Positions 3,652 to 24,293 of a stretch of DNA of 28,778 nucleotides are shown one piece after another (position 1 is the stretch's first letter; every line of letters starts with the position of its first letter). The stretch is from Myxococcales bacterium (GTDB lineage Bacteria > Myxococcota_A > UBA9042): contig JBBISH010000086.1 of NCBI GenBank assembly GCA_037441385.1, positions 1 through 28,778 on the forward strand, in the 5' to 3' direction. The translations under genes were made by a program, and so were the position numbers. A model generated the notes under the pieces. That model was given only the letters and a program-made list of their open reading frames with translations. It made no database searches and was not told where the DNA came from.

Positions 3652-3806
3652 GGCAACTCCTGCTGGGCGCATCGTGCAAGGCCCATGCGGCATAAGTGTA
3701 GTGATCGCGGCGCCTCTAGGCAACGAGAGCGCGGCGCGGCCGGGTTTGACACGGCTGCAGCCATGGGCACACTGGGGGCCAGAGCGGCTCGCTCGGAGAA
3801 CAAACG

Positions 3807-8210: not shown

Positions 8211-8324
8211 CGACCGCCGCGGCGACTTGCCCAGCCACCGCGCCGGTTTGCAAAGCGGACCTTGCAAGTCCGAATTGATGCCGGCAGCATGCCGGCGCTG
8301 CAGAAGAGCAGCGGCGAGGCACAC

Positions 8325-9689: not shown

Positions 9690-9773
9690 CCGTTGCGCTC
9701 GCCGCGGAACTCTTCGCACAAATTTGCGCGGCGTGCGTTGACAGCGGCCGCGTTTTTGACGACACAGCTTGAT

Positions 9774-11111
9774 GTGAACCTTGCCGCCCCCCTTTCGGTT
9801 CTGGGTTTGCGCGCGCCGTCCCAGTCGACGCGAGCGAGACGCGGATTTTTTCTCGCTTCTCTCGTTGCCGTTCTGCAACTTGGGGCATGCAAGGAGCAAG
9901 CCGCGACGCCGGTCGTCGCCGCGCCACCTGCCGAGGCCCCGGCGGCGATCGCGGGGGCTACTGCGCCTGCCGCCGACGCCAGCGCCGCCCCCGACGACGA
10001 AGAAGCCCTGCCGCGTGGCCCAGCCGTGGAGGTGCGGGTCGCCGACGATCCGGCCGCGCCCCTGGCGTATTTCCGCGGATTCCAAGGCGAACGTGGCGGC
10101 CAATCGGCACTTCTATACACGCGCACGCGCACAGGCCGCACCCCCACGACGATCGAAGATAGTTCCGTGGCCCTGCGCGGCGCCGACAAGGCCAATGGCG
10201 CACGCCGCGGCCCAGCTCAGCCGGCGCTGGGGACGCCCGTCCTGGTTTCGATCGGCGCCCAATGGTGCAAACCCTGCGGCGAAGAGCTGGGCGACGTGCT
10301 GGCACTGGCAGGCGAGATCGAGGCCAGCGCCGATCGCCCGCGGCTCTACATGGTGCTCGAGGGCACGCCGGACGAGTGGCCTCTTGCCGAGGTCCGCGAC
10401 GAGCTCTTGACCAAGCACGCCAAGTTCGCCAAGCGCAGCAAGCCGCTCGTGCCGGCCAACTGGGCAGAATTCCGCGCTGATTTGCAGAGCGCCTGGGGCG
10501 ACGCCATCGGCCGCTTGGGGGTGCTGGGCGGAACGGGCCCGGCCTCGTTGCCGGTCAATCTGCTGCTGGATGGTTGCGGGCATGTGCAAGCTGCCGCCAC
10601 TGGGTCCCTCAATTCGGCCAAGCGAGAGGCGTTTCGCAAACAACTGGCGAGGTTGCAGGGCTTTGCCTGTGCGCCGGCCCCGATGGCCGCGCCCCCCATC
10701 GCTCGTCCTGCCGTTGCGCGACCGCACACCAGCGAACCGGCCAAGGCGGCCGACCCAGGCAAGGGCAGTCTACCGCAGGGCAACGGCGACGGCCCCGCCA
10801 CCGGTCAAGAGGTTCCGGGCAAGGCGACCCACCCGGTGGATGCGCCAGCCAATCAGGGGCTACCCGAGCTCCCGCAAGGCAGCAAAAGGCCTGACCCGGC
10901 TGCTGAGCCCAAGGCGGACTCAAAGGCTGAGCCCAAGCCGGAACCCAAGGCGGAGCCCAAAGCGGAGCCCAAGCCGGAACCCAAGGCGGAGCCCAAGCCG
11001 GAACCGAAGGCGGAACCGAAAGCTGAGCCCAAGGCCAAGCCCGAGGCGAAGCCAGAGGCCAAAGGCGAGCCCAAGGGCAATGACAAACCCCGCGGCGACA
11101 ATCCGCAGTAG
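9774..11111 (+). CDS. TlpA/ResA-like thioredoxin-fold lipoprotein with a Pro/Ala linker and an (A/P)EPK-repeat tail
   Basis: RRGFFL plus hydrophobic stretch plus lipobox LGA-C; PVLVSIGAQWCKPCGEE active-site motif; SLPVNLLLDGCG cis-Pro strand. Start is uncertain (9693, 9774 or 9807). Confidence 0.75.
   Translation: MNLAAPLSVLGLRAPSQSTRARRGFFLASLVAVLQLGACKEQAATPVVAAPPAEAPAAIAGATAPAADASAAPDDEEALPRGPAVEVRVADDPAAPLAYFRGFQGERGGQSALLYTRTRTGRTPTTIEDSSVALRGADKANGARRGPAQPALGTPVLVSIGAQWCKPCGEELGDVLALAGEIEASADRPRLYMVLEGTPDEWPLAEVRDELLTKHAKFAKRSKPLVPANWAEFRADLQSAWGDAIGRLGVLGGTGPASLPVNLLLDGCGHVQAAATGSLNSAKREAFRKQLARLQGFACAPAPMAAPPIARPAVARPHTSEPAKAADPGKGSLPQGNGDGPATGQEVPGKATHPVDAPANQGLPELPQGSKRPDPAAEPKADSKAEPKPEPKAEPKAEPKPEPKAEPKPEPKAEPKAEPKAKPEAKPEAKGEPKGNDKPRGDNPQ
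10902..11075 (+). repeat. 12-nt coding tandem repeat encoding AEPK/PEPK/AKPE
   Basis: About 14 consecutive tetrapeptide units (gctgagcccaag, ccggaacccaag, gcggagcccaag and variants) with synonymous variation. Confidence 0.9.
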
Positions 11112-11129
11112 CGGCCAAGTGAGCAGATC

Positions 11130-11468
11130 GTGACTGGTTTTGGATACCTATGCCCCGAATGTCTGGAGGTGCCCGCCGCGCAGTGCGCCTACCGCGGCTG
11201 CCCCCAACGGGGCATGGCCACCGCGACGGTTGCCAGCTTGACGGCAGGATCCGCAGATGCGACCCGCGCCGTGTCGCCAGGAAGCCCTTTGCCCAATCCG
11301 GGCTTGCCGGAACCCGGCCGGGCCGGCGACGCCTTGGCGACTCGCTTCGTCGACCCAGGCGTGGGCCCCCCGCCCGCCGCCAACCCGCCTGCCCCTGCGC
11401 CGGCATCCGTTCAAGCCGACGACGCGCTGGCCACGCGCTATGTTGGGCCGGACAAGAAGGGAGGCTGA
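11130..11468 (+). CDS. Small Zn-ribbon protein (Cx2Cx7Cx4C) with a disordered tail carrying three T-R-x-V motifs
   Basis: GYLCPECLEVPAAQCAYRGC at the N-terminus; DATRAV, DALATRFV and DALATRYV. Fills the gap between neighbours; its stop is 1 nt before the next ATG. Confidence 0.7.
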   Translation: MTGFGYLCPECLEVPAAQCAYRGCPQRGMATATVASLTAGSADATRAVSPGSPLPNPGLPEPGRAGDALATRFVDPGVGPPPAANPPAPAPASVQADDALATRYVGPDKKGG

Positions 11469-11469
11469 C

Positions 11470-12198
11470 ATGGCGAGTTTTGTGGGCAGCGGCGCCGCCA
11501 TCGGCCGCTCGGCCGCGATTGCCGCGTTGGGGCTGGGCGTTTTGGCCGTGCCAGGTCTGCCGGTCTTGGCCGCCGTCGCCGTTGCGGTGGTGGCCGGCCT
11601 GACGGCTGCGTGGTGGCTGGCCCTCGCTGGGCGCGCCCGCCTGGACAGTGTGGAGCTCCGCTTTGTGCCACCCGAATTGCCCACGATCGCGAGCCCTGCG
11701 CCCGCGGCGGCAGCCGCCGACGGGGGAGCGCCCACGGGCACCGAACGAATTGCCGCGGCTCCGGTCCCGCTGCCTACGGCCGCCCAGACCCATTTCCAGG
11801 CCACGCCGTCGGACGTGGTGACACTGGGGGCCAGCGCTGACCCGGCTTTTCCAAGCTGGCGCCTGCACTGGCAATTGCCCGACGGGCGCGAGGGCCTAGT
11901 GGTGCTGCCGGCGGGCGAGCGCACCGTCTTGGGGCGCCAGTCCGACTGCCAGATCATCGTCCAGCTGGACGAAGTCAGCCGCAATCACCTGATCTTCCAG
12001 GTCGCGCGTCAGAGCGTCCGCGTCACCGAGACGGGGTCTTCCAACGGCACCTGGCGGCGCTCGGCGGGCGACAGCAGCCACACCTTGTGGACCCGCTTGT
12101 CGGCCGGCGCTCCCCAGCCGCTCGCGGCCGGCGACCAGTTGCGCATTGCCGATCCTTGGGCCATCGTACTCACCCTGGAGAGTGTGGTTCGCGGCTGA
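11470..12198 (+). CDS. Membrane-anchored FHA-domain protein
   Basis: AGGGAGG RBS before ATG 11470; long N-terminal hydrophobic segment. FHA signature VLGR...CQI...VSRNH...GSSNGTW...GDQLRI with the pThr-binding G-R, S-x-x-H and N-G-T residues intact. Confidence 0.9.
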   Translation: MASFVGSGAAIGRSAAIAALGLGVLAVPGLPVLAAVAVAVVAGLTAAWWLALAGRARLDSVELRFVPPELPTIASPAPAAAAADGGAPTGTERIAAAPVPLPTAAQTHFQATPSDVVTLGASADPAFPSWRLHWQLPDGREGLVVLPAGERTVLGRQSDCQIIVQLDEVSRNHLIFQVARQSVRVTETGSSNGTWRRSAGDSSHTLWTRLSAGAPQPLAAGDQLRIADPWAIVLTLESVVRG

Positions 12199-12216
12199 CG
12201 AACTGAGGAACTTGTC

Positions 12217-13542
12217 GTGTTGTTTCGAATGCTTGCAATGCTGCGCTGGCTCGCCGTTCTGGGCTTGCTCCTGCTCGCGGGCGCCACCACGGCTGTGGCC
12301 GTGCCCCCTCCGCCTCCCAGTGGGCATCGCGCCTTTGACGCCATCGACGCTTCCGTCATGTTCACGCGGTGTTTGCCCGCCGGTCAGCCCTGGAATCGCC
12401 GGCTGACGGTCACCGACAAGGGCACGGGCCACCGGCTGAGCGAGGCCGAGATTCAGGCCGAAAAGCTGCGGGTTACGTTGGTGGTCAACGGCGTCGACAC
12501 GGATGTCAAGCAAGTGGGCGACGGCTTCGACTTCGACTGGGTCCCGGCGGCCAACGCCAAGAATTACACCGTGTCCGTCAAGCTGAGCACGGCGACGACC
12601 ACGGTGGCCGGCATTCCTCGCGACGTGTTTGCGGCCCCCGATACCCATGTGCAACTCCCCACCGAGCTTGCGATTTCGCCGGTCGAAGGGGGCTGCAAGT
12701 CCGATGCGCACTGTGTGCCGTTGGACCTGGGCAAGTCGGTGGGGTTGTGGCCAGGGCTGCAGCTCAACATTACCCGAAAAAAGCCAGCTAGTTCAGGCGG
12801 TTGGGCTGCAGCGCCCATGCACTTGCAGGTCGGCGGCAAGCTGATCCCCTTCGAGCGCGACAAGCCCGTCGAGCTGTCGTACCAACCCACCCAAACAGTG
12901 CAGGTCTGCTATGCGGCGCCGCGCTGCACCCAGCCGCCGGCCGACACCTCTGAAGTCATCGAGATCAAACCCGTTCACTTCTGCCTCGCCGACGCCGACG
13001 AGGCCTGCAAAAAGGAGCCCAGGGGTATTGGCTGCGATCGGCCGCGCTCCGCCAGCGTGGTCGTCAAGGCCGACGTCAAGCCGAACAGTTGGCTGGACTG
13101 CAACCTGTGGTGGATCCTCATCGTCGCGGGGGTACTCCTGTTCTTGTTCATCGTCGCCGGCCTCGTCACCCCCAACCAGTTCGCCTCGGCGGCGATGGTG
13201 CGGGTCGCCAACAACGATCGTCAGCTGCGGCGCGAACAGGGGCGGCCGCTGCGCCGCGAGCCCGGGGGCAAGCGCGGCTTCTACCGCACCGCCACCGTGT
13301 GCTTTACCGACATCGGCACCACGGTCAAGAAGTCGCAGGGCCACATCCTGATGCTCAAGGCCGGGCCCGACAAAGAAATTCAAATTCACCGCAAGGGCGC
13401 AACCCTAGAGCGGTTCGAGCGCAACGCTTGGCGGCAGGTCGATCCTGTCGCCACCGGCAAAGACGTGCTGACCGAGCGCACCCTGGTCAGCGGCGGGCTG
13501 TACCGCGTGAACAACACGTACTATTTCATCGTCGATTTCTAG
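12217..13542 (+). CDS. Single-pass membrane protein: signal peptide, Cys-rich beta-rich ectodomain, TM helix, basic cytoplasmic domain
   Basis: GAGGA before the GTG; signal LRWLAVLGLLLLAGATTAVA; 9 Cys before the TM LWWILIVAGVLLFLFIVAGLV; about 120-aa Arg/Lys-rich C-terminal domain ending YYFIVDF. Confidence 0.8.
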   Translation: MLFRMLAMLRWLAVLGLLLLAGATTAVAVPPPPPSGHRAFDAIDASVMFTRCLPAGQPWNRRLTVTDKGTGHRLSEAEIQAEKLRVTLVVNGVDTDVKQVGDGFDFDWVPAANAKNYTVSVKLSTATTTVAGIPRDVFAAPDTHVQLPTELAISPVEGGCKSDAHCVPLDLGKSVGLWPGLQLNITRKKPASSGGWAAAPMHLQVGGKLIPFERDKPVELSYQPTQTVQVCYAAPRCTQPPADTSEVIEIKPVHFCLADADEACKKEPRGIGCDRPRSASVVVKADVKPNSWLDCNLWWILIVAGVLLFLFIVAGLVTPNQFASAAMVRVANNDRQLRREQGRPLRREPGGKRGFYRTATVCFTDIGTTVKKSQGHILMLKAGPDKEIQIHRKGATLERFERNAWRQVDPVATGKDVLTERTLVSGGLYRVNNTYYFIVDF

Positions 13543-13579
13543 AACTATCTGAAGGGGATGCGTCCCCCGCGAGGACAAC

Positions 13580-16500
13580 ATGGCCAACGAGTCCACTGCA
13601 CCGCAAAAGCCCGTCGCCCTGGGCTTCGACGACCTCAAGGGCGTGCCGCCTACGTTCTTCATCGGCATGGGCGGCTCGGGCGGCCGCGTCGTCGACGTGC
13701 TGGCGCAGCGCCTGAAAAGCGAGCCGACCTGGCCTAAGTTCCAAAAGCTCATCCACTTCTTGTGCGTGGACACCGACGCCAATGACCTAGCGCGCCTGGC
13801 CAAGCGGGTCGAGACCAGCAACATCTCGATCTCGGACAAGAAGCGCCGCATCGAGCTGCTGCGCGGCCGCATGGACCACGACGCCAACGAGCGCATCACC
13901 TCGTGGGTGCACCCCTGGTACGGCTTCCGCGACGTGGCGGGCAAGGGCGCTGGCCAGATCCGCTTGGAGTCGCGATTTTCGCTGCACTGTCAGATTGCCG
14001 ACGCACTGCCGGGCAACCTGCGCGACATCGTGGTCCGCAAGCTGCGCGAGTCGATGGACGCGCTGAACCCCAACCAGCAGCGCGGCGCCAACGTGCGCTT
14101 CTTCATCTACGGCTCGCTGGCCGGCGGCACCGGCTCGGGCGCTTCGCTGACCGCGGCGTACCTGGTGCGCAAACTGGCCGAAGACGCGGGCGTGCCGGCC
14201 GAAGTGTTCGGCATGTTCTTCTTGCCCAGCGTCTTTCGCGATCGAGTCGAGTCGGCGCTCGTCAGCAAGATCAACTCCAATGGTTACGCGGCCCTCAAAG
14301 AGATCGAGTGGTGCATGGAGATGCGCTACGACGGCGCGGGGCCGGGCGAGCTGGAGTACGTCTTTGACCCGCGTCGCACGGCTTCGACCAAGGTTGACCG
14401 GAAGCAGGACCGCGTGACCCGCGCGCCCTTTGACTGGGTCTATGTGGTCGACAAGCCCGAGAAGCTGGCGATCGAGCAGATCTACCAGGCGGCCGGCGAG
14501 TCGGCGTACCTGCAGCTGTTTTCGCCGATCATGGCCTTCCAGGATCGCGAGGGCGACAACTTTGCCCAGCTGCAGAGCGAGCCCAGCGACGGCTTCTTTG
14601 CCGTGCAGTACGGCTCGATGGGCTCGTCGGTGCTGGAATTCCCGCGCGAACGGCTGGTGCGCTACTTCGCCCGCCGCAAGACCGTGGAATTGGTCGAGCG
14701 GCTGGTGGTGGGCAAGCCGCCGACCGGCTCGGGCGTCGCCGACGACCTGGTGCTCAGCGGCCGCGAGTTCCTGGACCTGGCCGAGAGCGAGCAAAACCGC
14801 CGCATCGACGAGGCCTTCAAGCGCTTTGTCGAGTATGAAGCGCGGCAAGAGAGCGAGGCGGAAAAGCGCGGCATGTTCACGGACATCGCCGAGCTGCGGG
14901 TGGGCCAGACCAACCTGCTGGACGAGTTCCGCGCCCGCCTGAACGCCGAGATCGAGGGCCTGAAGTCCGAGGTGGTGATCGCCACCATCAACGCGCCCGC
15001 GATCACGCCGGAAAATCCGACGTTGAACCACGCGCGCGTCAACCTGGGCCGCGACTACAAGGCCGGCAAGCAGACCGTGGACAAGAAGGCGCAGATGCTG
15101 GCGCGCGACATCGCGTCGGGCCAGTACCTGAGCAAGTTCTTCCGGGATTTCAAGGCGTCGCCGCTGCAGCAGCGCTACTTCCTGGTGCGTTTGAACGAGC
15201 TGGCCCGCAACCAGGACCTGCGCACGGGCGTAGAGGAAGAGGACGCGTCGCTGCTCGAGTGGTGCTTCCTGCCTTCGTCCGATATCGACTCGGTGGCCTA
15301 CCTGGCGCGCAAGCCGCCGGAGCCGATCGAGTACGACGTGGACCTGCCCGAGGTGCGCAAGCGCATCAGCGCCGCCGAGGAGCGGCTGTCGACGGCGGCC
15401 AAGAAGCTGATCGGCAAAGAGAAGGCCTTTGACGAGGCCCGTATCTCGGCCGTGCGTGAGTTCCAGCGCTTGGAGCAGGCGGCGGGCGACGCGCTGGTCA
15501 TCGACTTCTGGCATCAGATCAACCGCGCCCTGCGGCAGCACTCCGAGAAGCGCGCGGATCTGTTCCGGGTCATCGCCAAGAAGGGCCTGAGCCAGGTCGA
15601 CCACCTGCGCGCCCAGGCCGAGAACTGCCGCAACCGCGGCGCGGCGGTGCCGGACATCGGCAAGACCGACGAGGATCTGGCGGAATTCCACCTGGGCAAC
15701 GAAGTGTTCCACGACGCCCGCAACAAGCTGCGCCAGTGGCACCTGGCCTACAAGGTGCTGGTCGAAGAGGACTTTGTGGTCGACACCGGCGAGGTGCTGG
15801 CCAAGGTCAACGAAGTGCTGGATCAGGCTGCGGCAGGCACAGGCAACACCGCGGGCGCGCAGAACAATTCCGACGACGTGTTGGCCGGCATCATCGACCG
15901 CATCGACAAGCAGATGCGCGAGAAAATGCAGCGCTTTGTCGACGTGGACAAGGGCATGAACCTGTTCAACGCCCTAGAGATGGAGATCCGCATGAGCCAG
16001 CTGGGCAATGCGGCGTGGATGACGGCCAAAGACTTGGAGAAGGTGGAGCTGAACGCCATCGAGCCGTACCTGAAGGACAAGCTGGGCTTTGTCGCCTCGA
16101 TGTCGGTGCCGCTGGCCCGGTTCGACGAAGCGGTCTTGGCCGGCGCCGGCAAGAAGCCCTATCGTCCGCGCTTCTACGGCGTGGATCACAAGCTGCTGGA
16201 CAAGTCGCCGGCGGTGGCGCGGGCGCTGCGCGATGCGGCCAGCGGCTTCTCGATGCTGGAAGACTGGAATTCGCACGACATTTTGGCGTTCTACCAGGCG
16301 ACCTTGGGCGTGCCGCTGTACGCGTGGCGCGACGTGCAGGACGATCTGGCCATCGCCTACGAGTTCGAGTCCAATGAGTCGGGCCGCGGCCACCCGATGC
16401 ATGTGGATTCCCGTTGGGAAAATCGCGGCTTCCACGACAATCCCACCTTGGGTATCCCCGGGCTGTCGCTGGGCGCGCGCCGCAAGTGGCAGGCCGAGAA

Positions 16501-16885
16501 GAAGGCCTACGAAGAGGAACTGGCCCGTAAGAAGCGCGCCGAAGAAGAGGCGATGCTGCGGCAAGCCTCGGCTTCGGCTGGGCAATTGGCGCGGGCGCTG
16601 GCGGCGGGCTTTGTCACCGAGCTCTACGGCGCCTGGAAGCTGTCGTACCGCGGCCGCGACTTTGAGCTGGGCACCGGCCTGGCCGAGAGTCTGCAGAAAT
16701 TCGCCGCGTTGCCCGATGCAGTGCGCGGTCCGGTCGATCGCGCGGCGGCCGAGACGCTGCAGAGCGAGCCCGGAAAGGTCGCGGATGTGCGCAACAAGCT
16801 GGACGACTGGCTGTTCGACGCCGGCTCCGAGGGCCGCACCGCGGACGAAAAAGCGATCGGTCTGCTGCAGGCGCAACTCAAGTAG
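13580..16885 (+). CDS. Tubulin/FtsZ-like GTPase of the FtsZl1 (Pfam Tubulin_2) family with a long helical C-terminal extension
   Basis: GAGGA RBS. FIGMGGSGG (T1), CVDTD (T2), GKGAGQIRLESR (T3), GSLAGGTGSG (tubulin signature, 14111-14140), FFLP, NGYAALKEIE, PFDWVYVVD; C-terminal FYQATLGVPL...AY...PMHVDSRW. Confidence 0.93.
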   Translation: MANESTAPQKPVALGFDDLKGVPPTFFIGMGGSGGRVVDVLAQRLKSEPTWPKFQKLIHFLCVDTDANDLARLAKRVETSNISISDKKRRIELLRGRMDHDANERITSWVHPWYGFRDVAGKGAGQIRLESRFSLHCQIADALPGNLRDIVVRKLRESMDALNPNQQRGANVRFFIYGSLAGGTGSGASLTAAYLVRKLAEDAGVPAEVFGMFFLPSVFRDRVESALVSKINSNGYAALKEIEWCMEMRYDGAGPGELEYVFDPRRTASTKVDRKQDRVTRAPFDWVYVVDKPEKLAIEQIYQAAGESAYLQLFSPIMAFQDREGDNFAQLQSEPSDGFFAVQYGSMGSSVLEFPRERLVRYFARRKTVELVERLVVGKPPTGSGVADDLVLSGREFLDLAESEQNRRIDEAFKRFVEYEARQESEAEKRGMFTDIAELRVGQTNLLDEFRARLNAEIEGLKSEVVIATINAPAITPENPTLNHARVNLGRDYKAGKQTVDKKAQMLARDIASGQYLSKFFRDFKASPLQQRYFLVRLNELARNQDLRTGVEEEDASLLEWCFLPSSDIDSVAYLARKPPEPIEYDVDLPEVRKRISAAEERLSTAAKKLIGKEKAFDEARISAVREFQRLEQAAGDALVIDFWHQINRALRQHSEKRADLFRVIAKKGLSQVDHLRAQAENCRNRGAAVPDIGKTDEDLAEFHLGNEVFHDARNKLRQWHLAYKVLVEEDFVVDTGEVLAKVNEVLDQAAAGTGNTAGAQNNSDDVLAGIIDRIDKQMREKMQRFVDVDKGMNLFNALEMEIRMSQLGNAAWMTAKDLEKVELNAIEPYLKDKLGFVASMSVPLARFDEAVLAGAGKKPYRPRFYGVDHKLLDKSPAVARALRDAASGFSMLEDWNSHDILAFYQATLGVPLYAWRDVQDDLAIAYEFESNESGRGHPMHVDSRWENRGFHDNPTLGIPGLSLGARRKWQAEKKAYEEELARKKRAEEEAMLRQASASAGQLARALAAGFVTELYGAWKLSYRGRDFELGTGLAESLQKFAALPDAVRGPVDRAAAETLQSEPGKVADVRNKLDDWLFDAGSEGRTADEKAIGLLQAQLK

Positions 16886-16918
16886 TTCCACTCGTTTCGC
16901 TGTGTCCAGGGAGTCCCC

Positions 16919-18904
16919 GTGAGCATTCCGGTCCAAGTCGCGGTCACTAGCGGGACCTTGCTGCCCGCCGTCGAAGAGGTCCAGGCCCGCCTGGGGACCA
17001 TTGGCGGCGCGCAGATGTTGTGGGTCTTGAGCGACTTGGAGCAGCCCGACGTGCCGCAACGGGCCGCGGCTCAAGTCCGCGCGATGCTGGGCGCGCGCCG
17101 GCACGAGGGCGGCTTTGCCCAGATCGTGCTGGCTCACGACGTGGCCGGGATGAACCACGCCCTGCAGGTGCTGCGCGGCGCCGAACCCGGCCGTACGCCC
17201 TGGGCGCTGGTAGTGATTGGCCTTTTTGAGGAAGGCGACGTGGTCGAGCCGTTGCCTGCCGGGGTTTCGTCGGTGCACGTGGTGCCAGCGGCGCTGGCCT
17301 ACCGCGAGCTGGGCTGGCGCGAACGCGAGCGATCGGCAGCCAACTTGTTGGGACTGCTGACGGATCTGGCGCGTTCGGACCGGGCGCGCGAGTCGTGGCA
17401 GCAGTGGGTGGCGACCTACGCCGGTGTGCGCGTCACCCTGGCGCAGGCGGCGCGCTTCCAAGCGCCCATGGTGCAGCGCGTTTTGGCTCGGCGGCTCGCC
17501 TCGCGAGTCGTCGAGCGCATGATCGACGCCTTGGGGCAGGGCCAGCGCCCACAGACCGCTCCGCGTCTGGCCGATCCACCGGCCGCGCCGGACCACGATG
17601 TGCAAGAAGCGCTGAGCCAGCGCGCCCACGAGCTGGGCGAAAAGGTGGCCGTGCGCATCGTGGGTGCCGACGACGACGTGCAACCGCTTCCTGCCGAAGA
17701 GGTTTTGCACCAGCGCGCGCGCCGCGAGGTCCGCGAACTGCCGCAGAAGCTGGAAGACGTCTTGAAGCGCCACGGCAGCGACCTGCGCGACAAGGCGCTG
17801 GCGTGGCAAGGCGAACTGCGGCAATGGGTCGATGCCGCGCTGGAGCAGGCGAGTTTTGCGGCGCTGCCGGGAGTCATCGCCAGGCTGGAAGCGTGGCTAG
17901 AGCGCCTGGCGCTGCCAATGCACGACGGTAGCCAGCACGGGCCGCGGCAGGCCCTGCGATTGGACCCGCCGGACTCGGCCCAGCTGCGTGCAGCGGTGCA
18001 GGCGCTCGAAGCCGAGCTGGCCGCTCACGACGACTCGCACTTGCTGTTTGGCGGCTGGTCGCTGGCCATCGGCACTACGGTGGGGCTAGCCACCGCGGCA
18101 GGGCTGCAGGCCTTGGGCACCCATGCGCCACTGGCCGCTGGCGGCGTGGGCACTGCGGTAGTGGGCGCGGGCGCTGGGATTTCGGCGGTCCGGTCGCGGC
18201 TCGCCCAAGCTCAACTGCGGCGCCTGCTCGCCCAAGAGCAGCTGGCGCGCCAGGCCTACCGGGCGGCGTGGACCAAACTCATCGAGCGGCAGATCGCCGA
18301 CATCGGTGCGGTCTTGAACGAGCGCATGGTGCGGTTCGCCAGCGAGGTGGTGCAAGGCGAGTTGGTGTGGCTGCGGTCCGTGCGCGACACGCTCAGCGAT
18401 TTGTACCAGCAGTATCAGAAGCCCGAGCGGCTGCGCATGGGCTCGGACTCGGCGTTTGAGTCCGACATCCGCCTGCCCGAAGAGTTCTACGCCAAGGCCG
18501 AGCAAGTGGCCGACGCGTCGCCCTTGTTTGCCGAATACGAAGGGCAGCTGGCCCAGTCCAACTGGCGTCAGCGCCTGGGCTTCATGAACAGCGACGCGCT
18601 GCTGAAGCAATGCGAACTGGCCTACGGCAGCTTCCGCGAGCAAATCCCCTTTGATCAGCGCGCCGAGCTGCGCGACGTGGCTCTGGGACCCACGGGCGTG
18701 GCCATTCGGCAAATGCTCGACCGGCTGGCCGACTACCTGCCGCCCGAGTTTGGCGCCGACACCATGGTGGTGCTGCCTTCGCGGCTGTCGGACGCGGTGC
18801 CCGATGACCGGGTGGGCGCGCTGCAGATGCACCTTGGCGTGAGCGACGTGTTCGTGGCGGTATCGCGGCCGGCGGCGCCGCGCAGCGACTGGGCGGGGCA
18901 GTAG
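16919..18904 (+). CDS. Helical protein with a central Gly/Ala-rich TM hairpin; probable inactive paralog of the adjacent tubulin-like protein
   Basis: AGGGAG RBS before the GTG. Hydrophobic hairpin LLFGGWSLAIGTTVGLATAAGL...AAGGVGTAVVGAGAGISAV flanked by coiled-coil-like helices. By-eye colinear similarity to the 13580 protein but without its Gly-rich GTP loops. The CDS is secure; the paralogy is inferred. Confidence 0.65.
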   Translation: MSIPVQVAVTSGTLLPAVEEVQARLGTIGGAQMLWVLSDLEQPDVPQRAAAQVRAMLGARRHEGGFAQIVLAHDVAGMNHALQVLRGAEPGRTPWALVVIGLFEEGDVVEPLPAGVSSVHVVPAALAYRELGWRERERSAANLLGLLTDLARSDRARESWQQWVATYAGVRVTLAQAARFQAPMVQRVLARRLASRVVERMIDALGQGQRPQTAPRLADPPAAPDHDVQEALSQRAHELGEKVAVRIVGADDDVQPLPAEEVLHQRARREVRELPQKLEDVLKRHGSDLRDKALAWQGELRQWVDAALEQASFAALPGVIARLEAWLERLALPMHDGSQHGPRQALRLDPPDSAQLRAAVQALEAELAAHDDSHLLFGGWSLAIGTTVGLATAAGLQALGTHAPLAAGGVGTAVVGAGAGISAVRSRLAQAQLRRLLAQEQLARQAYRAAWTKLIERQIADIGAVLNERMVRFASEVVQGELVWLRSVRDTLSDLYQQYQKPERLRMGSDSAFESDIRLPEEFYAKAEQVADASPLFAEYEGQLAQSNWRQRLGFMNSDALLKQCELAYGSFREQIPFDQRAELRDVALGPTGVAIRQMLDRLADYLPPEFGADTMVVLPSRLSDAVPDDRVGALQMHLGVSDVFVAVSRPAAPRSDWAGQ

Positions 18905-18905
18905 G

Positions 18906-21728
18906 ATGGCGGCAGCGACCTTGCTCATGATTGTGGCTGGAATTTCCGGCGTGCTCATCGTCGCTTGGCTGCTGGCGGTCCAGGCTGGTCCCGACTGGTT
19001 GCGCCCAGGCCACGGCCCGCTCTGGTACTTCTCGGCGGCCGCGACGCTGCTTGTGGGTGGGGCGCTTGCGGCGCTCCAGCAAGTGGGCGTGCTGCCCGAG
19101 CACCGCATTGGCGGCCTGCCGGGTACCCTTAACGCCATGATCCTGGCCGAGATTTTGGTGATCGTGCTGTTCCCAGTGATGTGGTTGGCGTTTTCGCAAC
19201 TGCACAAGCCCGGGCCGCGTGAAGCCCCAATTCCGCGCCTATTCATCTACTTGGGCATCGCGCCCGACGGATCGCCGCTACTGGAACTGCGTTGGATGTT
19301 GCGCACGCTGGCCGTGGTTGGTCTGCTGGTGGCCACGCTGGCTATCCTGGGCATGGACCTGTCGTCGGTGATCGGCAGGGGGCCGCGGCAGCACACGCTT
19401 TGGGCCTTTGGTTATGCGGCGTTACTTGGCGTGTTGTTCGGCTCAACCCATCCCGTGCGGCCGGTGCCGGCGGCCCGGCGTGCGCCTTCGAACGAGGCAG
19501 TCTTGCCCAAGGCCCCGTTCGACAAGCGCATCGACGCGCTGCATCGCTGGCTGGGCAGTCCGGTCGAGGCGGAGTCGCTGCAGGAAGTGCGCCGCGACCG
19601 CAAGGGCCCGCGCCAAACCGACCAGCGCTTTGGGCTGGATCTCTATCCGTTCCAGGCGCGCCTGCTCGACGAACTGAGCGATGCGCCGGCCGTGGCCCTG
19701 GCGGGACCGGCGGGGACGGGGCGCACCACTGCGGCGTTGCTGCGGGCGATCGACATGGCGCTGGCTACGGGTGCCTCGTGCGCAGTCATCACGCCCACGC
19801 GCGACGCCGTCCGCCAGAATCTGCTCCACGCGCGGGCTCTTTGCGAGCGTATCAGCGCCGGCGCGGCTGTGACCTTGGACGACGGGGTGCCGCCGCGCTC
19901 GGCCGACCTGTGGCTGGTCTCGCTCGACGACTTGGAACGCTTTTTGGACGAGACCATCGATCCGGCTGCGCTGCCGATCATCGGCCGGCTGAAGCTGGTG
20001 GTGGTGGACGACCTGGACCAGCTGTACGGTCCTGAAGTGGCGCGCCTGCGCTTTGTGGTCTACCGCCTGATGGCCCTGCGGGGCGCGGCTCAGCCGCAGT
20101 TGCTGCTCGCCGGCAATCTCTCTCCGCAAGTGCTGCAGCAGGTTGCCGAACGCGTTGCGACGGGCACCGTGCGGGTGGTGGCCACTGCAGGCGAAAATGA
20201 TGCCAGCGGTGCCGCTTCGCGGGCCGTGCGCCGCTTCGTGGTCGACCCGTCGCGCGTCGATCACAAGTCCACCTCGACCTTTGGCCTGCTGGGCATCCGC
20301 GATGGCTACGAACGGCTGGTCACTGAGGTGCCCGACGCGTCCATGCGCTTGAACGCCGCGCTGCTGGGCGATCCGTGGTCGCCGTGGCCGCCGCCCGACC
20401 AGAGCCAGCCCGACCAGCCCGCCGAGGTGCTGTTGGCGCGGGTGGGTCCGCGCTCGGCGTGGCACGTGCTGGGGCATCGGCGCTACTACCCCGAAGCCGC
20501 GGCACCCGCGCACGAGTACCTGCTGTTTGCCGACGATCCCCTGAGTCAGTTGCTGGTGGGCCAGTTCCGCGATCGCCATAGCTGGTGGCCCACGTGGTAC
20601 GACACCTCTCGCTTTCCGCGTATCCTTTCTGCGGTGCCCGGCGGCAGTGCCACGCCGCAAGGCCTGTTGACCCAGGCGCGCGCCCACCTCCGGGCGGCGC
20701 TGGACAAGGGGTTTTGCGACGTCGAGCGGCTGCGACAGGTGTTCTCGCCCGAAGTGGCCGATCAAGTCCTGGCCAGCTTGGACAATTCGCGCAGCTTCGA
20801 GCGCTTTGAAGCGTGGCGACCCAATCCGGCCGATCCCAAGAAGCCGCAAATCGTCCAGCTGTGCCGTGCCCAAGGGGCGGCAACGGGGGACCGCAGCGCC
20901 ACCTACGAGACCGCGGAACTGCGCGACCCGTCGGTGGGTTTGACGTTCAAGGTCCCGGCGCCGCTGCTCGATGTCGACTTCTACGACGGTGCCATTCTGC
21001 AGCGCGCCGGCCGGCGCTACAAAGTCGTCTCTGACCCGCGCCAACCCAAGCAGCGTCAGTTGCAGGTCGAGTCGTCGGCCATGACGGCCACGCCGATCCG
21101 CGCCATGCAATTCAAGCGCCACGGCAGCGGGCCGATGGACGTCCGGTTCCAGCGCTACGGCGGCCAGAAGGGGCTGGAGACTGTCCGCTGCGCGGTGCAG
21201 CTGCAATTGACGCACCACGGCGTGCACTTCTTTGGCCACACCCGCACGCCGGGCGCCACGGGTCGCACGGACTCCCTGCAGCGCCTCCACGAACAGATGC
21301 TGCCGCAACCCCTGACGTCGCAGGGTTTTGTCACCCGCGCGTGGGTGGTCTGCCCGCCCGACGCGGACGAGGTGGTGCTGCATACACTGACCCACGTGCT
21401 GCGCGACTGCCTGGACTACTTCTTCTTGGGCGCCAGCGACTTCATCGGGGTCGGCTACGAGATGGACTTGGGCGGCAAGGCCGGCATCGTGTTCTACGAC
21501 CGCCACCCCGAGGGCCTGGGCTGCCTGGACGACATCGACGACGCCAAGGACTTGCAGGCGATCCTGGCGGCGGCGCGCGAGATCCTGGCCGGCTGCGACT
21601 GCGAGTCGTCGTGTGCCAAGTGCTGCCGCTCGGTGGGCTGCACGCGCCGCCCGCACAACCACGACCTGGACCGCAAGCGCACGGTGGTGGTGCTCGACGC
21701 GCTGCTCAGCCGCGGGAGGGTCGGTTGA
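18906..21728 (+). CDS. Membrane-anchored, motif-degenerate MrfA/Hrq1-type SF2 helicase with a C-terminal DUF1998 Zn-binding domain
   Basis: About 5 N-terminal TM segments. Q-motif LYPFQ, Walker A GPAGTGRT, motif Ia TPTRD, motif II LVVVDDLD, FADDPL. DUF1998 pattern LHTLTHVL...IVFYDRHPEGLG...AREILAGCDCESSCAKC. Confidence 0.85.
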   Translation: MAAATLLMIVAGISGVLIVAWLLAVQAGPDWLRPGHGPLWYFSAAATLLVGGALAALQQVGVLPEHRIGGLPGTLNAMILAEILVIVLFPVMWLAFSQLHKPGPREAPIPRLFIYLGIAPDGSPLLELRWMLRTLAVVGLLVATLAILGMDLSSVIGRGPRQHTLWAFGYAALLGVLFGSTHPVRPVPAARRAPSNEAVLPKAPFDKRIDALHRWLGSPVEAESLQEVRRDRKGPRQTDQRFGLDLYPFQARLLDELSDAPAVALAGPAGTGRTTAALLRAIDMALATGASCAVITPTRDAVRQNLLHARALCERISAGAAVTLDDGVPPRSADLWLVSLDDLERFLDETIDPAALPIIGRLKLVVVDDLDQLYGPEVARLRFVVYRLMALRGAAQPQLLLAGNLSPQVLQQVAERVATGTVRVVATAGENDASGAASRAVRRFVVDPSRVDHKSTSTFGLLGIRDGYERLVTEVPDASMRLNAALLGDPWSPWPPPDQSQPDQPAEVLLARVGPRSAWHVLGHRRYYPEAAAPAHEYLLFADDPLSQLLVGQFRDRHSWWPTWYDTSRFPRILSAVPGGSATPQGLLTQARAHLRAALDKGFCDVERLRQVFSPEVADQVLASLDNSRSFERFEAWRPNPADPKKPQIVQLCRAQGAATGDRSATYETAELRDPSVGLTFKVPAPLLDVDFYDGAILQRAGRRYKVVSDPRQPKQRQLQVESSAMTATPIRAMQFKRHGSGPMDVRFQRYGGQKGLETVRCAVQLQLTHHGVHFFGHTRTPGATGRTDSLQRLHEQMLPQPLTSQGFVTRAWVVCPPDADEVVLHTLTHVLRDCLDYFFLGASDFIGVGYEMDLGGKAGIVFYDRHPEGLGCLDDIDDAKDLQAILAAAREILAGCDCESSCAKCCRSVGCTRRPHNHDLDRKRTVVVLDALLSRGRVG

Positions 21729-22852
21729 TCAGTCTGAACCGCAACGACGTGATCTTGGCCGGGGCGCCCCTGCCGGGTTCTGCCCCCGCCGTGGTGCAGC
21801 CCGCGCGTTGCCAGGGTGCGCAGGCGCTGGCCAAGTCGTACCCGATCCCCGTCGACCCGGCGCAAGCTGGCGCGTGGCTCCAGGCCGAGGCGTTTGCCAC
21901 GCAGAAGGTCCAGCACGTGTGCGTGCCCAAGGTGCTGGGCAGCTGGCAGGGTCAAGATGGCACTGCGCATTTGATCCTGCAGCGGCCGGCCGGTCGCCGC
22001 TGGGACGAAATCGTGCGCATCGGTCAGCAACGCCACAGCTACATGGCTGCGCGCGCCTGGGACGAGGCGACCCGCCACGTGGTGCGATCGCTGGCCCATT
22101 GCATCGAAACGGCGCATTTTTCGGGTGTTGCCCACGGCAACTTGGCGCCGGACAGCGTGTGGGTCGACCTGACCGCCATGGGCGAACTGGACATCAAAGT
22201 GGTCGATTTCTTGGGCAGTACCCCGCTGGTGCCGGGGCCGCGCCTGCGTTTTGCCGCGCCCGAGCAACTGGCTGGCCAGGCGGCCGACGCCCGCACCGAT
22301 GTGTACCGCCTTGCGCTGTTCGTGTATTTCTCGCTGACCGGCACCACGCCGTGGCCCACCGACGATCTGGCTGCCGCTCGCACGGCGCGGCTGGCTCCCG
22401 TGGATCGCGTGCCCGACGAGCGCGCGGCCGCCGCTTGGGCGCTGGTGTCCAAGTGGCCCGAGGTGGCCCGCACCCTGCAAGTGGGACTGCAGGCCGATCC
22501 CAACAAGCGCCCGCAGACCATTGCACAATTCGTCAGTCTGCTGGGCTTGGGGTGGGCGCTGCCCGAGCCGCGGCGCAGCATGGACGTGGGTTACGCTGTG
22601 GCGGGCGCACTCGCGATGCTGGCGGCCGTAGCGGTGTCTTGGCCTGCGGAAGATAGCCGTTTGACGCGGGCCCTGCTCGATCGCCAACCGTTGGCTGCCT
22701 GCTCGGCGCAACTACCGGTACTGGCTCAGCAAGTCTGCGCCAAATACGGTGCCAGCCGTCCGCAGTGCCAGCAGGCCCTGACGTTCGTGCTGGGCCGCGA
22801 AGAATGTCCCAACCGTATCAAGACGCTGCGCGCCTGCTTGGGCGAGCCGTGA
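21725..22852 (+). CDS. Transmembrane Ser/Thr pseudokinase with a small Cys-rich C-terminal domain
   Basis: The TTG start overlaps the helicase TGA (TTGA) and follows GGGAGG. Hanks-type motifs ALAK, QAEA..QKVQH, HGNLAPDS (for HRDLKPxN), VVDFL (for DFG), FAAPEQ, DARTDVY, DPNKRP. TM VGYAVAGALAMLAAVAVSW; 5 Cys in the tail. Confidence 0.85.
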   Translation: MISLNRNDVILAGAPLPGSAPAVVQPARCQGAQALAKSYPIPVDPAQAGAWLQAEAFATQKVQHVCVPKVLGSWQGQDGTAHLILQRPAGRRWDEIVRIGQQRHSYMAARAWDEATRHVVRSLAHCIETAHFSGVAHGNLAPDSVWVDLTAMGELDIKVVDFLGSTPLVPGPRLRFAAPEQLAGQAADARTDVYRLALFVYFSLTGTTPWPTDDLAAARTARLAPVDRVPDERAAAAWALVSKWPEVARTLQVGLQADPNKRPQTIAQFVSLLGLGWALPEPRRSMDVGYAVAGALAMLAAVAVSWPAEDSRLTRALLDRQPLAACSAQLPVLAQQVCAKYGASRPQCQQALTFVLGREECPNRIKTLRACLGEP

Positions 22853-22883
22853 CCCACCTTTTTCGAGGTGCCTGCCCGTTGCC

Positions 22884-24287
22884 ATGACCGTTGCCAAACT
22901 CATTGAGTACATCCTGGTGTTCTCGCTGGTGCTCATCTCGGGCCTGGGCATGGGCTTGGGCATGAGCGCGAGCCAGCGCCACCACGAACTCAGCATCGGC
23001 CTGGACACCGGGGTGCCGTCGTCGTGTGCCGCGCTGTCCAAGGGCCACGGCGACTCGTGCAAAGGCGCGTTGACCAGCGAAGCTGGCAAGGTGCTGGGTG
23101 TGCCCATCGCCAACTGGGGCATGGCCACCATGGGCATCGCCTTTGCGGCTGCGCTCGTCTTTGCCGGGGCGCTGAGCGTGGGAGCGTGGCAGGTGGCCGC
23201 GCACGTCTTCTCGCTGCTGGTGTTGCTCGCGCTCATCGACTTGGGCGGGACGTTGACCTACTTGTACATCGGCCTGATCCAGATGGGCACCAAGTGTGCG
23301 ATGTGCTTGGCGATGCACACGGCCAACGCCGCATTTTGCCTGGTGGTCGGCTTGGCGTGGACCAACATGGGCGACCGGATGCGCGACCTGGCGCGGACCC
23401 AAGGGCCCGCCTGGAAACGGCAGGTGGCGGCGACGGTGGCGCTGGGCGTGGGCTTTTGGTTCATCGTCAGCGTGGGCACGGACTTCTACTTCACCGAGCA
23501 GCAACGGCGCCTGCACAAGAAGCGCACCGACGGCGCCGAGCTGATTCGCGAGCGCGGCGAGGTGATGCTGGCTTGCCCGGCCAAAGACTGCATGGCGTCG
23601 CTGCAGTACGCGACGGCGGACCTGCCGCCCGACGACGCCTCGCTGGTGCTGGCCAAGGCGGCGCCAGGCCGTCAGACCCTGGTCGAGATGCTCGATATGT
23701 CGTGCCCGCACTGCCGCCACGAGTACAAAGAGCGCATGTCGATGCTCTACCACCGGCTGCTGGCCGCGCCGGATGGCACGGGCGCGCGGCTGCTGCTGTG
23801 GCCGGCCTCGAATGAATGCAACCCCGAGTACGGCGGCCAGAAGCTCCCCAACTGCGAAGCCAACGCGGCGCTGGTGTGCGCCTGGCAGGCTGGTCCAGAT
23901 CAAGGGCTGGCCTACGCCGACGAAGAAGCCAGTCACGCCCACGAGCAGGTCACCTTCGACCGGCCGGCCTGGCTCAAATCCAAGGCGGGCGCCGCGGCCG
24001 AGCAGTGCTTCCAGCGCGAAGTCTCGGCTGGCTTCCCCACCCTGAAGCGCCACGTCCAGGCGGCGGTCAAGCTGCGCGAGGTCGCCCGGGGCAAAAGCGC
24101 CGAGTGCCGCACGGGCCTGGACGCCGGCGGCAAGCAAATCGACGCTGGCGTCTTGTACTGGTGCTTCACGGGCACGCCCAGCTACGCGGTGTTCGGCGAC
24201 CGCGGCAGCGCGCCCGGTCCCGATCAACGGCTCCAGGCCGCACAAGCCTTTGATAAATGGCCGTTCTTGGCGGGTTGCCTGAAGTAG
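22884..24287 (+). CDS. Vitamin K epoxide reductase (VKOR)-DsbA/thioredoxin fusion
   Basis: VKOR loop Cys pair SSC...DSCKGALTS, then VLGVPIANWG and a CAMC redox motif within about 5 TMs. C-terminal DsbA-like domain EMLDMSCPHC...ECNP...CEA...GTPS. Confidence 0.9.
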   Translation: MTVAKLIEYILVFSLVLISGLGMGLGMSASQRHHELSIGLDTGVPSSCAALSKGHGDSCKGALTSEAGKVLGVPIANWGMATMGIAFAAALVFAGALSVGAWQVAAHVFSLLVLLALIDLGGTLTYLYIGLIQMGTKCAMCLAMHTANAAFCLVVGLAWTNMGDRMRDLARTQGPAWKRQVAATVALGVGFWFIVSVGTDFYFTEQQRRLHKKRTDGAELIRERGEVMLACPAKDCMASLQYATADLPPDDASLVLAKAAPGRQTLVEMLDMSCPHCRHEYKERMSMLYHRLLAAPDGTGARLLLWPASNECNPEYGGQKLPNCEANAALVCAWQAGPDQGLAYADEEASHAHEQVTFDRPAWLKSKAGAAAEQCFQREVSAGFPTLKRHVQAAVKLREVARGKSAECRTGLDAGGKQIDAGVLYWCFTGTPSYAVFGDRGSAPGPDQRLQAAQAFDKWPFLAGCLK

Positions 24288-24293
24288 TCTGGC

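Follow-up and report, generated by a model that had tools for sequence, protein, structure and literature searches.

A nine-gene FtsZl1 cluster of Myxococcota as a probable reduced form of an FtsZl1–vWA envelope system

Does a run of nine genes round an FtsZl1 GTPase in a Myxococcales bacterium encode a new kind of bacterial system, or is it a version of one that is already known? Within the tubulin/FtsZ superfamily, no branch is more divergent than FtsZl1, which was predicted in 2010; no experimental study of it was found in the literature, with subscription journals mostly outside the search. The window, i.e. the whole stretch of DNA that was analysed, is an entire contig of 28,778 bases (C86; GC 64–71%) from a genome of 6.6 Mb in 221 contigs that is 91% complete and whose closest relatives are metagenome-assembled genomes of lake Myxococcota. 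A first-pass annotation of this DNA had proposed a candidate new system here. That is not borne out: the cluster is of a kind already known, if experimentally uncharacterised. The reading favoured here is that of an envelope system of Myxococcota on an FtsZl1–vWA core, present in a reduced version specific to its lineage and working by the mechanism proposed below. We hold this to be probable, with some reserve, a grading that combines high confidence in the identity of the cluster with lower confidence in its mechanism.

The cluster spans positions 9774–24287. The coordinates of its open reading frames (ORFs) reproduce exactly the nine co-oriented genes and the spacing first listed: all genes are on the + strand, and the intergenic gaps from g1 to g9 measure 18, 1, 18, 37, 33, 1, −4 and 31 nt. 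The cluster genes are called g1–g9 in order, and genomes and loci carry G and L numbers, respectively (G000 is the window's genome). TM stands for transmembrane.

g1, 9774–11111, + strand: putative thioredoxin-fold lipoprotein with lipobox LQLGAC, a WCKPC motif and a PEPKAE-type low-complexity tail
g2, 11130–11468, + strand: small soluble protein with an N-terminal Cys4 and three T-R-x-V motifs
g3, 11470–12198, + strand: membrane-anchored FHA protein with two TM segments and a cytoplasmic FHA domain (Pfam FHA)
g4, 12217–13542, + strand: signal/TM segment, Cys-rich periplasmic domain, TM segment and cytoplasmic tail, without vWA
g5, 13580–16885, + strand: FtsZl1/Tubulin_2 GTPase of 1101 residues with intact T1 and T4 loops
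g6, 16919–18904, + strand: protein of 661 residues with an α/β N-terminal domain (1–170), long helices and a Gly/Ala hairpin (375–424)
g7, 18906–21728, + strand: four-TM N-terminus, degenerate SF2 helicase-like core and Cys-rich MZB/DUF1998
g8, 21725–22852, + strand: predicted receptor-type pseudokinase with a cytoplasmic kinase fold, a TM segment and a periplasmic tail with five Cys
g9, 22884–24287, + strand: VKOR membrane domain fused to a periplasmic CPHC domain

A membrane-associated FtsZl1 (Tubulin_2) cluster is borne out by Pfam and by a TM scan. Tubulin_2, DUF1998/MZB, FHA and VKOR, the families expected at first, are all found above their cut-offs in g5, g7, g3 and g9, respectively. 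No Pfam family was found for g1, g2, g4 and g6, even at E ≤ 5, and a scan of the cluster proteins with NCBIfam added nothing specific. The hydropathy scan gives two TM segments in g3, four in g7, one in g8 and five in g9, as well as a signal/TM segment and one further TM segment in g4. The membrane attachment claimed earlier stands for these five proteins and, through the lipobox, for g1; the hairpin of g6 falls below the hydropathy threshold.

The centre of the cluster is g5. It matches Tubulin_2 (PF13809) over residues 27–372 with 166.8 bits against a cut-off of 27 (E = 1.1e-48), and it is the sole Tubulin_2 gene in the window's genome. The Gly/Ser/Thr positions of its nucleotide loops T1 (GMGGSGGR) and T4 (AGGTGSG) are invariant in 18 aligned sequences, namely G29, G31, G32, G34 and S179–G187. 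No GTPase family of Pfam or NCBIfam is matched by the nine proteins, so there is no 'GTPase_new' match and, as had been noticed at the outset, no extra P-loop GTPase. With T1 and T4 intact and the corresponding motifs of g7 and g8 degenerate, g5 is the only cluster product in the window with intact NTP-binding motifs, in agreement with the first view of the tubulin as the only NTPase there.

How far does the arrangement round g5 extend? Twenty Tubulin_2 loci from different Myxococcota families were scanned with profiles of g1–g9 and with Pfam. The g5 profile scores at least 230 bits in ten of them, and in eight of these ten (L072, L074–L078, L080 and L085) a DEAD/MZB or g7-like protein is encoded two genes downstream. 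L071 has no DEAD/MZB gene downstream and the contig of L079 ends too early, so that Tubulin_2 and a TM-DUF1998 protein co-occur, as was suspected from the window, in eight of nine assessable loci of the same FtsZl1 subfamily. Genes that are g4-like or encode VWA lie upstream of FtsZl1 in L072 and L075–L080, N-terminal TM segments (four to seven) are present in all nine g7-position proteins examined, and a central hydrophobic pair in seven of eight g6-position proteins. In the other ten loci, which belong to lower-scoring FtsZl1 subfamilies, MZB was not found at E ≤ 1e-5 in the genes scanned, and the neighbours are vWA, HSP70-like or GrpE genes. The MZB family as such is present in 279 of 401 Myxococcota genomes. 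Judged by these neighbourhoods, g4-g5-g6-g7 represent the Myxococcota form of a vWA–FtsZl1 core, which consists of a vWA protein, the GTPase, a hairpin protein and a membrane MrfA-like pseudo-helicase, and the membrane MrfA-like protein is a regular partner of one FtsZl1 subfamily in the phylum. The core is surrounded by three additions, which recur in part in four divergent lineages: a phospho-threonine module (FHA and kinase, with PP2C in relatives), a thioredoxin-fold lipoprotein and a VKOR–CPHC protein.

FtsZl1–vWA operons were already tabulated in 2010, and the proposal of a new system is not borne out. Makarova and Koonin (PMC2875224) defined FtsZl1, listed, in the parts of the work consulted here, operons in which FtsZl1 is accompanied by vWA, kinase and OmpA genes, by a diverged GTPase and by membrane families without a name, and proposed a role in membrane remodelling. 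The cluster shares with these operons, as far as those parts describe them, the central Tubulin_2 GTPase of ~1100 residues, a vWA-family, periplasm-facing partner directly upstream (vWA-bearing in relatives of the cluster), large membrane-associated partners downstream and a Ser/Thr kinase in the neighbourhood. Two Planctomycetes entries in that portion of the table (PMC2875224) also have an FHA gene upstream of FtsZl1, as in the cluster. Unlike the operons described there (PMC2875224), the cluster has lost the adjacent vWA domain and contains neither the P-loop 'GTPase_new' nor OmpA genes. The Trx-fold, VKOR and PP2C genes of the cluster or its relatives do not appear in the table parts covered (PMC2875224), and the words 'helicase' and 'DUF1998' occur 0 times each in those supplementary files of the paper that were searched, so the downstream partner is not named in this way there. 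No paper linking DUF1998/MZB to FtsZl1 was found in a search that left out most subscription journals, which is not proof of absence, and a 2023 phylogeny uses the Tubulin_2 group as an outgroup only.

The vWA partner itself is the first part of the core that looks altered in the window. g4 (441 residues) consists of a signal/TM segment, a periplasmic domain with nine cysteines, a TM helix and a 120-residue cytoplasmic tail, and each of its ten cysteines is kept in 8–10 of 10 sequences. A VWA match was not found in it with Pfam, even at E ≤ 5. Its homologue in L010 is 868 residues long and, after the signal peptide, starts with LELDDSGSM, which includes a MIDAS-like motif (DDSGSM), and a permissive Pfam scan of this vWA-like N-terminus yielded no usable match; this homologue is colinear with an L076 protein that carries VWA_2 at 2.8e-5, and the g4 profile matches genes upstream of FtsZl1 in L075–L080. 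Because of the MIDAS-like motif and the colinearity with the VWA_2 protein, g4 of the window is the C-terminal, vWA-less remnant of a periplasmic vWA–TM partner of FtsZl1. The first-pass statement that no vWA is recognisable is thus right for the window's genus only, since relatives carry the domain. In L076, from another Myxococcota family, a 865-residue protein upstream of FtsZl1 (1185–3782, + strand) fuses VWA (5.7e-6) to FHA (3.1e-12) and joins two functions that are encoded by separate genes in the system of the window. In L078, a monomeric isocitrate dehydrogenase gene (13322–15538, − strand; Pfam E 0) is located between two g4-like genes and FtsZl1.

The downstream partner, g7, is altered in a different way. 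Pfam finds DEAD in residues 248–375 (1.1e-6) and MZB/DUF1998 (PF09369) in residues 828–907 (6.3e-9, 36.8 bits against a cut-off of 24.2); Helicase_C was not found at E ≤ 0.01, a sequence-level result that is compatible with a diverged RecA2 fold. The Walker A motif reads GTGRT and motif II reads DDLD, and the window protein and its six close orthologues have GTGRT/GSGRT and DD[LV][DE] at these positions. The MZB cysteines C897, C903 and C906 are invariant in 13 sequences. In a search of the Protein Data Bank (PDB), a 13-member g7 profile matches MrfA/YprA of Bacillus subtilis (PDB id: 6ZNP) at 8.2e-16, with residues 682–898 aligned to 516–732 of the chain. The shared part is the C-terminal third of g7 including the Cys4 MZB, and an N-terminal DEAD-type RecA1 is weakly detectable. 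MrfA is a soluble, active repair helicase. Unlike MrfA, g7 has four N-terminal TM helices, GTGRT in place of GxGKT, DDLD as motif II and no Helicase_C match, and it is best described by these motifs as a membrane-anchored MrfA/YprA-like pseudo-helicase. Among the g7 relatives compared, the Walker A lysine is kept in L010 and G324 only; the motif is GxGR[ST] in G114, G245, G006 and G385 and SGRRT in G280, and the P-loop is absent in G077, G400 and G142. In most lineages, the ATPase motifs of g7-position proteins are thus eroded. The idea that the Lys-to-Arg change is a recent decay in the window's genus was rejected in view of the four genomes with GxGR[ST] and the three further lineages without a P-loop. 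In the Nannocystaceae genome that carries L010, an assembly gap of 10 N (L010:16533–16542) splits the g7 orthologue into two open frames.

Between the GTPase and the pseudo-helicase lies g6, which the first-pass annotation called a degenerate tubulin paralog. Its family is rare: 13 proteins were found in a word-indexed search, and 28 clusters, 14 of them at E ≤ 1e-30, among 1.84 billion representatives. An AF2 model of the whole protein (13 sequences, pLDDT 71) has an N-terminal α/β domain (1–170) and very long helices, with the Gly/Ala-rich segment 375–424 at the tip of the hairpin; the N-terminal domain modelled alone reaches a pLDDT of 80 and a pTM of 0.75. The two arms of the hairpin (375–393 and 406–424) are weakly hydrophobic, with scores of 1.41 and 1.48 against the threshold of 1.6, and g6 is probably a membrane anchor. 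When the full and N-domain models were compared with 48,161 chains by a method independent of Foldseek, FtsZ (2vaw_A) came first for both (Z 10.2, rmsd 4.8 and 4.2, 191 and 174 residues aligned), and glycerate kinase (Z 9.9) and other three-layer α/β folds tie with it, which makes the assignment ambiguous. Tubulin-family chains (FtsZ, PhuZ, CetZ, CetZ2, Asgard and Odin tubulins, TubZ, BtubA and α/β-tubulin) account for 11 of the 50 matches listed for the N-domain model, and it is they that align over the greatest lengths. In Foldseek, FtsZ comes at E 6.6e-3 or worse for the N-domain, after a short-chain dehydrogenase, which adds to the ambiguity. For the full model, Foldseek gives nothing at E ≤ 1e-3, and its top matches are α-pore-forming toxins and dynamin-like proteins with model-normalised TM-scores below 0.2. 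Alignment of the g6 N-domain with the g5 domain by hhalign has a probability of 0.2, Pfam finds no Tubulin match in g6 (E ≤ 5) or in eight g6-position proteins elsewhere (E ≤ 1), and no conserved G-rich nucleotide loops are present in g6, the sole conserved Gly pair being that of E63-G64-G65. Protein Atlas returns unnamed clusters only, with a recognition lower than is usual; one row at 0.84, with Tubulin_2 on 17% of its members, can serve as a lead only. A complex prediction of g5 (1–400) with g6 (1–600) scored 0.00 against a mark of 0.32; it was run without controls and weighs neither way. Because fold support is modest and a sequence signal is absent, a tubulin-like fold without GTP motifs is possible but unproven for g6, and the label of a tubulin paralog is not established.

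The FHA and kinase genes of the phospho-threonine module flank this core. The FHA domain of g3 (PF00498) is found at 3.5e-9, 37.4 bits against a cut-off of 20.7, behind TM segments 9–27 and 32–50. GR, SxxH and NG are the phospho-Thr binding residues of FHA domains, and all are kept in 9 of 9 aligned sequences of g3. g8 matches Pkinase at 1.8e-9 (37.8 bits, cut-off 31.7), with a catalytic loop HGNLAPDS and DFL in place of HRD..N and DFG, so that the catalytic Asp is missing; H[GA][NT]L is found in all seven kinase sequences of the window's genus. Outgroup kinases have HNDIKPQN and DFG (L010), HNDVGPRN (G114) and HNDLKPED (G324), i.e. HND is kept, DFG mostly so, and they score 8.6e-34, 3.6e-25 and 2.7e-21 with Pkinase. 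A TM segment (286–304) of g8 is followed by periplasmic cysteines 326, 338 and 348, kept in 9 of 9 sequences, and 361 and 371, kept in 8 of 9. These features indicate that g8 is a receptor-type pseudokinase, catalytically dead in the window's genus. g2 (112 residues) has an N-terminal CxxC-x7-C-x4-C, with all four cysteines kept in 7 of 7 sequences, and its three T-R-x-V motifs (DATRAV, LATRFV and LATRYV at window positions 11256, 11334 and 11427) compare with a single TRx[VI] in the other 12 window proteins scanned. FHA domains read pThr together with the +3 residue, preferably a hydrophobic one. Once phosphorylated, the T-R-x-V motifs of g2 would be a candidate ligand for the FHA domain of g3. 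A g2 homologue was not found in L010, L034 or L080, and g2 was found in the window's genus only.

The ends of the cluster are occupied by thiol-disulfide enzymes. g1 has a lipobox (LQLGAC) and a CxxC (WCKPC) that is invariant in 7 of 7 orthologues; orthologues match Redoxin at 1.1e-7 (G114), AhpC/TSA at 6.6e-5 (G324) and Thioredoxin_8 at 0.018 (L010). The C-terminus of g1 (window 10930–11111) is made up of PEPKAE/PKAEPK-type repeats, and its length varies among orthologues. g9 matches VKOR (PF07884) at 2.7e-9, 37.7 bits against a cut-off of 27.5. Six of its cysteines are kept in 8 of 8 sequences: the loop pair C48 and C59, the CxxC C138 and C141, and the C-terminal pair C274 and C277, which is CPHC in seven sequences and CESC in L010. 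Pfam shows no DsbA or Trx match in the C-terminal domain, and a PDB profile search gives VKOR at E 0.023 and a sole DsbA-like row (3gyk, 27-kDa protein) at E 0.52. The original description of g9 as VKOR–DsbA is therefore upheld for VKOR, and no significant match supports DsbA. Fusions of bacterial VKOR homologues to thioredoxin-like domains, which take the place of DsbB/DsbA, were reportedly described by Dutton et al. in 2008 and Li et al. in 2010. Like these fusions, g9 joins a VKOR part, with its loop Cys pair and CxxC, to a periplasmic domain, here with CPHC; unlike them, it is a second, divergent copy, and its periplasmic domain is recognised as DsbA/Trx neither by Pfam nor by PDB profiles. 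The other VKOR of the genome (L021; G000:C65:19068–19478, − strand) lies in an open frame of 851 residues, scores 84.9 bits against 41.4 for g9 and is probably the housekeeping disulfide oxidase. As this stronger VKOR exists elsewhere in the genome, g9 would be a dedicated paralogue.

Do these enzymes serve the cluster, or do they provide its signal? The Trx-fold gene stays linked to the cluster in four lineages and VKOR in three, and the claim that the thiol-disulfide genes belong to it is sustained. One alternative to the favoured reading is a redox sensor: g9 and g1 would determine whether the periplasmic cysteines of g4 and g8 are oxidised or reduced, and this state would itself be the signal to FtsZl1, reporting oxidative or envelope stress without a ligand. 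The position of a VKOR paralogue and a Trx-fold lipoprotein at the cluster ends in several lineages, the conservation of the ectodomain cysteines, their odd periplasmic numbers (nine in g4 and five in g8) and the glutamate-cysteine ligase (GCS2) gene directly upstream in the window fit such a sensor. Dedicated oxidoreductases are, however, equally expected for plain oxidative folding of Cys-rich ectodomains, the FtsZl1–vWA–MZB core occurs in other families without Trx and VKOR (g1 and g9 profiles), and GCS2 precedes the cluster only in the window and in L006 (41% identity). We consider a redox sensor quite improbable.

The unity of the nine genes raises a further question. A search with g5 found nine loci in eight genomes. 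The genes g4–g9 or g1–g9 are contiguous in L004, L006, L007 and L010, the last of which is distant (g5 44% identical) and labelled Nannocystaceae; the order recurs in four divergent Myxococcota lineages, as expected from the earlier idea of a gene set conserved together. In G001, G002 and G003, g1–g5 and g6–g9 are found on different contigs with both halves kept, g6–g9 being together and in order; MurB and RecQ follow g5 on the opposite strand in L002 and L003. A metagenome scan with the g6 alignment gave only three loci, two of them from genomes already found, with g6–g9, or g6 at a contig end, and no g5 upstream. In the extreme, g1–g5 and g6–g9 would be two unrelated operons that are merely adjacent in the window, as the split genomes and the metagenome loci could suggest. 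Yet the halves are adjacent and in the same order in four divergent lineages, the g5-X-g7 junction across their boundary is the most widely conserved part of the arrangement, and all nine g6-bearing genomes of the 401 sampled also carry Tubulin_2. Moreover, the three split genomes share downstream genes and have g5 identities of 80–81%, and therefore fit one ancestral rearrangement. Two unrelated operons are accordingly a highly improbable explanation. The cluster is made up of two modules, g1–g5 and g6–g9, that are usually adjacent and were both kept after an apparently single rearrangement, and the nine genes cannot be called an indivisible unit. The g6 profile was found in 9 of the 401 genomes and Tubulin_2 in 99; the nine g6 holders are the window's genome, six of its seven other congeners, one of six genomes of a sister genus and one from a distant family. 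The congener without g6 and Tubulin_2 has an 81% complete genome.

Outside the window's genus, the cluster has a fuller form, taken here as the ancestral one, as the following gene orders illustrate.

G151/L010 (family f44): Trx-like, FHA, PP2C, 868-residue g4 homologue, Tubulin_2, g6, g7, kinase, VKOR
G114/L034: Redoxin, intervening genes, FHA, PP2C, g4, Tubulin_2, g6, g7, kinase, then a g4-like gene and a second Trx-like gene
G324/L080 (family f15): AhpC/TSA-like Trx, FHA, g4, Tubulin_2, 615-residue protein, MZB protein, kinase, VKOR

Compared to these relatives, the window's genus has lost the vWA domain, PP2C and the catalytic residues of the kinase, i.e. it carries a reduced form. Together with the GxGRT Walker A of g7, these losses leave g5 as the sole product with intact NTP motifs. 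The 'several dead enzymes' of the first-pass annotation are thus borne out for g7 and g8 in the window but reflect in part a loss specific to this lineage, as relatives keep a canonical kinase, PP2C and, in two lineages, the Walker A lysine. Modules of FHA, Ser/Thr kinase and PP2C are known to gate membrane machines, e.g. PpkA-PppA-Fha1 in type VI secretion and PknB-PstP-FhaA/B in actinobacteria. The clusters of L010 and G114 resemble them in that each encodes PP2C, a membrane-bound FHA protein and a receptor-type kinase whose tail is periplasmic, whereas the window's genus has a dead kinase and no PP2C; the gated machine is proposed to be an FtsZl1 assembly rather than a secretion system or divisome.

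The surroundings of the cluster in the window are as follows. A scan of positions 9400–24700 found 0 promoter-like sequences and 12 terminator-like ones against 11.0 expected, none of the latter in intergenic gaps. The flanks encode LTD/TSP3/DUF4215 and Dicty_CTDC repeat proteins, a TPR protein and GCS2. The repeat proteins are large and secreted (280–3816 and 26452–28647, both − strand), one with Lamin-tail, thrombospondin type 3 and DUF4215 repeats and the other with Dictyostelium CTDC repeats. The GCS2 gene (8262–9689, + strand; Pfam 4.4e-63) ends 84 nt 5' of g1 on the same strand; a gene 41% identical is found 5' of the L006 cluster and not of L002, and L010 has a serine-acetyltransferase-like gene instead. 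GCS2 was rejected as a member of the system since it is not kept upstream in L002; the two kinds of neighbour may reflect a thiol-metabolism theme or a coincidence. Long antisense ORFs, a result of high GC, run opposite genes such as g5 (13787–15742, − strand, 651 residues) and g7 (739 residues); they have no family matches and were treated as spurious.

What might the reduced system do? In the mechanism proposed, g9 would oxidise, and g1 reduce or isomerise, the periplasmic cysteines of g4 (nine) and g8 (five), and this disulfide handling would let the two ectodomains fold or change state. The ectodomains would serve as envelope sensors. Their tails in the cytoplasm would then work with g6 and g7, the putative membrane anchors or scaffolds, to bring GTP-dependent g5 assemblies to the inner membrane or to let them go. 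Phospho-threonine marks would be read by the FHA protein g3, with the T-R-x-V motifs of g2 as candidate ligand and the writer kinase encoded elsewhere. The cellular output may be membrane remodelling, envelope maintenance or conflict.

Conflict as the primary function is a separate explanation. Kaur, Burroughs, Iyer and Aravind (2020, PMC7159879), in the parts of the article considered here, reread tubulin+vWA+GTPase neighbourhoods as conflict systems that are enriched in multicellular bacteria. By analogy, the cluster would be an NTP-dependent anti-phage or other conflict system in which the ectodomains or g7 sense an envelope or DNA-entry signal, and runaway FtsZl1 assembly or membrane damage through g6 leads to abortive infection. 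As described in those parts, the systems of Kaur et al. (PMC7159879) share with the cluster a tubulin-family protein that is extended by helices at its C-terminus, membrane vWA proteins, a large number of inactive enzyme domains and multicellular or social bacterial hosts. Pseudoenzymes are common in such systems, the distribution in the phylum is patchy (Tubulin_2 in 99 and g6 in 9 of 401 genomes), other FtsZl1 loci of the phylum adjoin HSP70/GrpE-like genes as in Kaur's tubulin–HSP70 class, and the weak, non-significant Foldseek rows of the helical part of g6 are to α-pore-forming toxins and dynamin-like proteins. MZB/DUF1998 is also found in DruE, and the DruE models of PADLOC match g7 residues 859–931 and 821–925. 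Apart from this DruE tail, the rows of g7 in PADLOC-DB 2.0 are weak (PDC-S68, DinG and Cas3e), g8 meets only generic kinase models (PD-T4-6, MkoA and PglW), the other seven proteins give nothing, and no defence-system model is matched; the defence role raised early on has no direct support. None of the nine genes was found to encode a nuclease, protease, TIR or other usual effector, the flanks hold neither mobile-element nor defence genes, and no product of the cluster matched the hallmarks listed in the parts of Kaur et al. considered (GAP1-N2 or DO TRAFAC GTPase, FNIII-repeat proteins and HSP70; PMC7159879). Six of seven congeners keep the cluster, which also survives its split; this pattern suits a resident cellular system better than a defence island subject to shuffling. 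We regard a conflict system of this type as rather unlikely. Beside other FtsZl1 subfamilies, the HSP70-like and GrpE-like genes are located at L067:13002–15830 and L069:5482–6765 and recall the class of Kaur et al.

Several points, in addition to the ties in the g6 fold search, weigh against a reduced envelope system working as proposed. The 20 Tubulin_2 loci were hand-picked across families rather than drawn at random, and the TM calls come from a crude Kyte–Doolittle hydropathy scan (threshold 1.6). A Trx fold in g1 and a DsbA-like one in g9 are suggested by motifs and weak orthologue matches, and in G114 the g9 profile finds no VKOR, a second Trx-like gene being present instead. Since g2 is restricted to the window's genus, the idea of an FHA ligand cannot be general, and since g8 is dead, phospho-signalling needs a kinase encoded elsewhere. 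The halves are unlinked in three species, and co-transcription of all nine genes is therefore not required.

A more specific version of the mechanism has g5 and g6 form a heterotypic pair of a live GTPase and a motif-less protein of tubulin fold, tied to the membrane by the g6 hairpin, with assembly gated by the disulfide-dependent ectodomains of g4 and g8 and with g7, a helicase fossil, as scaffold. This version is unlikely. If it were true, bacteria would have in g5–g6 a membrane-bound counterpart to pairs of one live and one dead subunit, and the cluster would be a trans-envelope switch composed nearly entirely of pseudoenzymes around one GTPase.

For the reduced envelope system as such, the relatives form a graded series, from a full form with vWA, a live kinase, PP2C and the Walker A lysine to a reduced form in which all four are lost or dead. 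The main value of the locus lies in this natural series and in the concrete tests that it suggests. What persists through the whole series is the GTPase together with the hairpin protein, the MZB domain and the disulfide enzymes, and this points to the parts of the FtsZl1 system that may be indispensable as opposed to regulatory.

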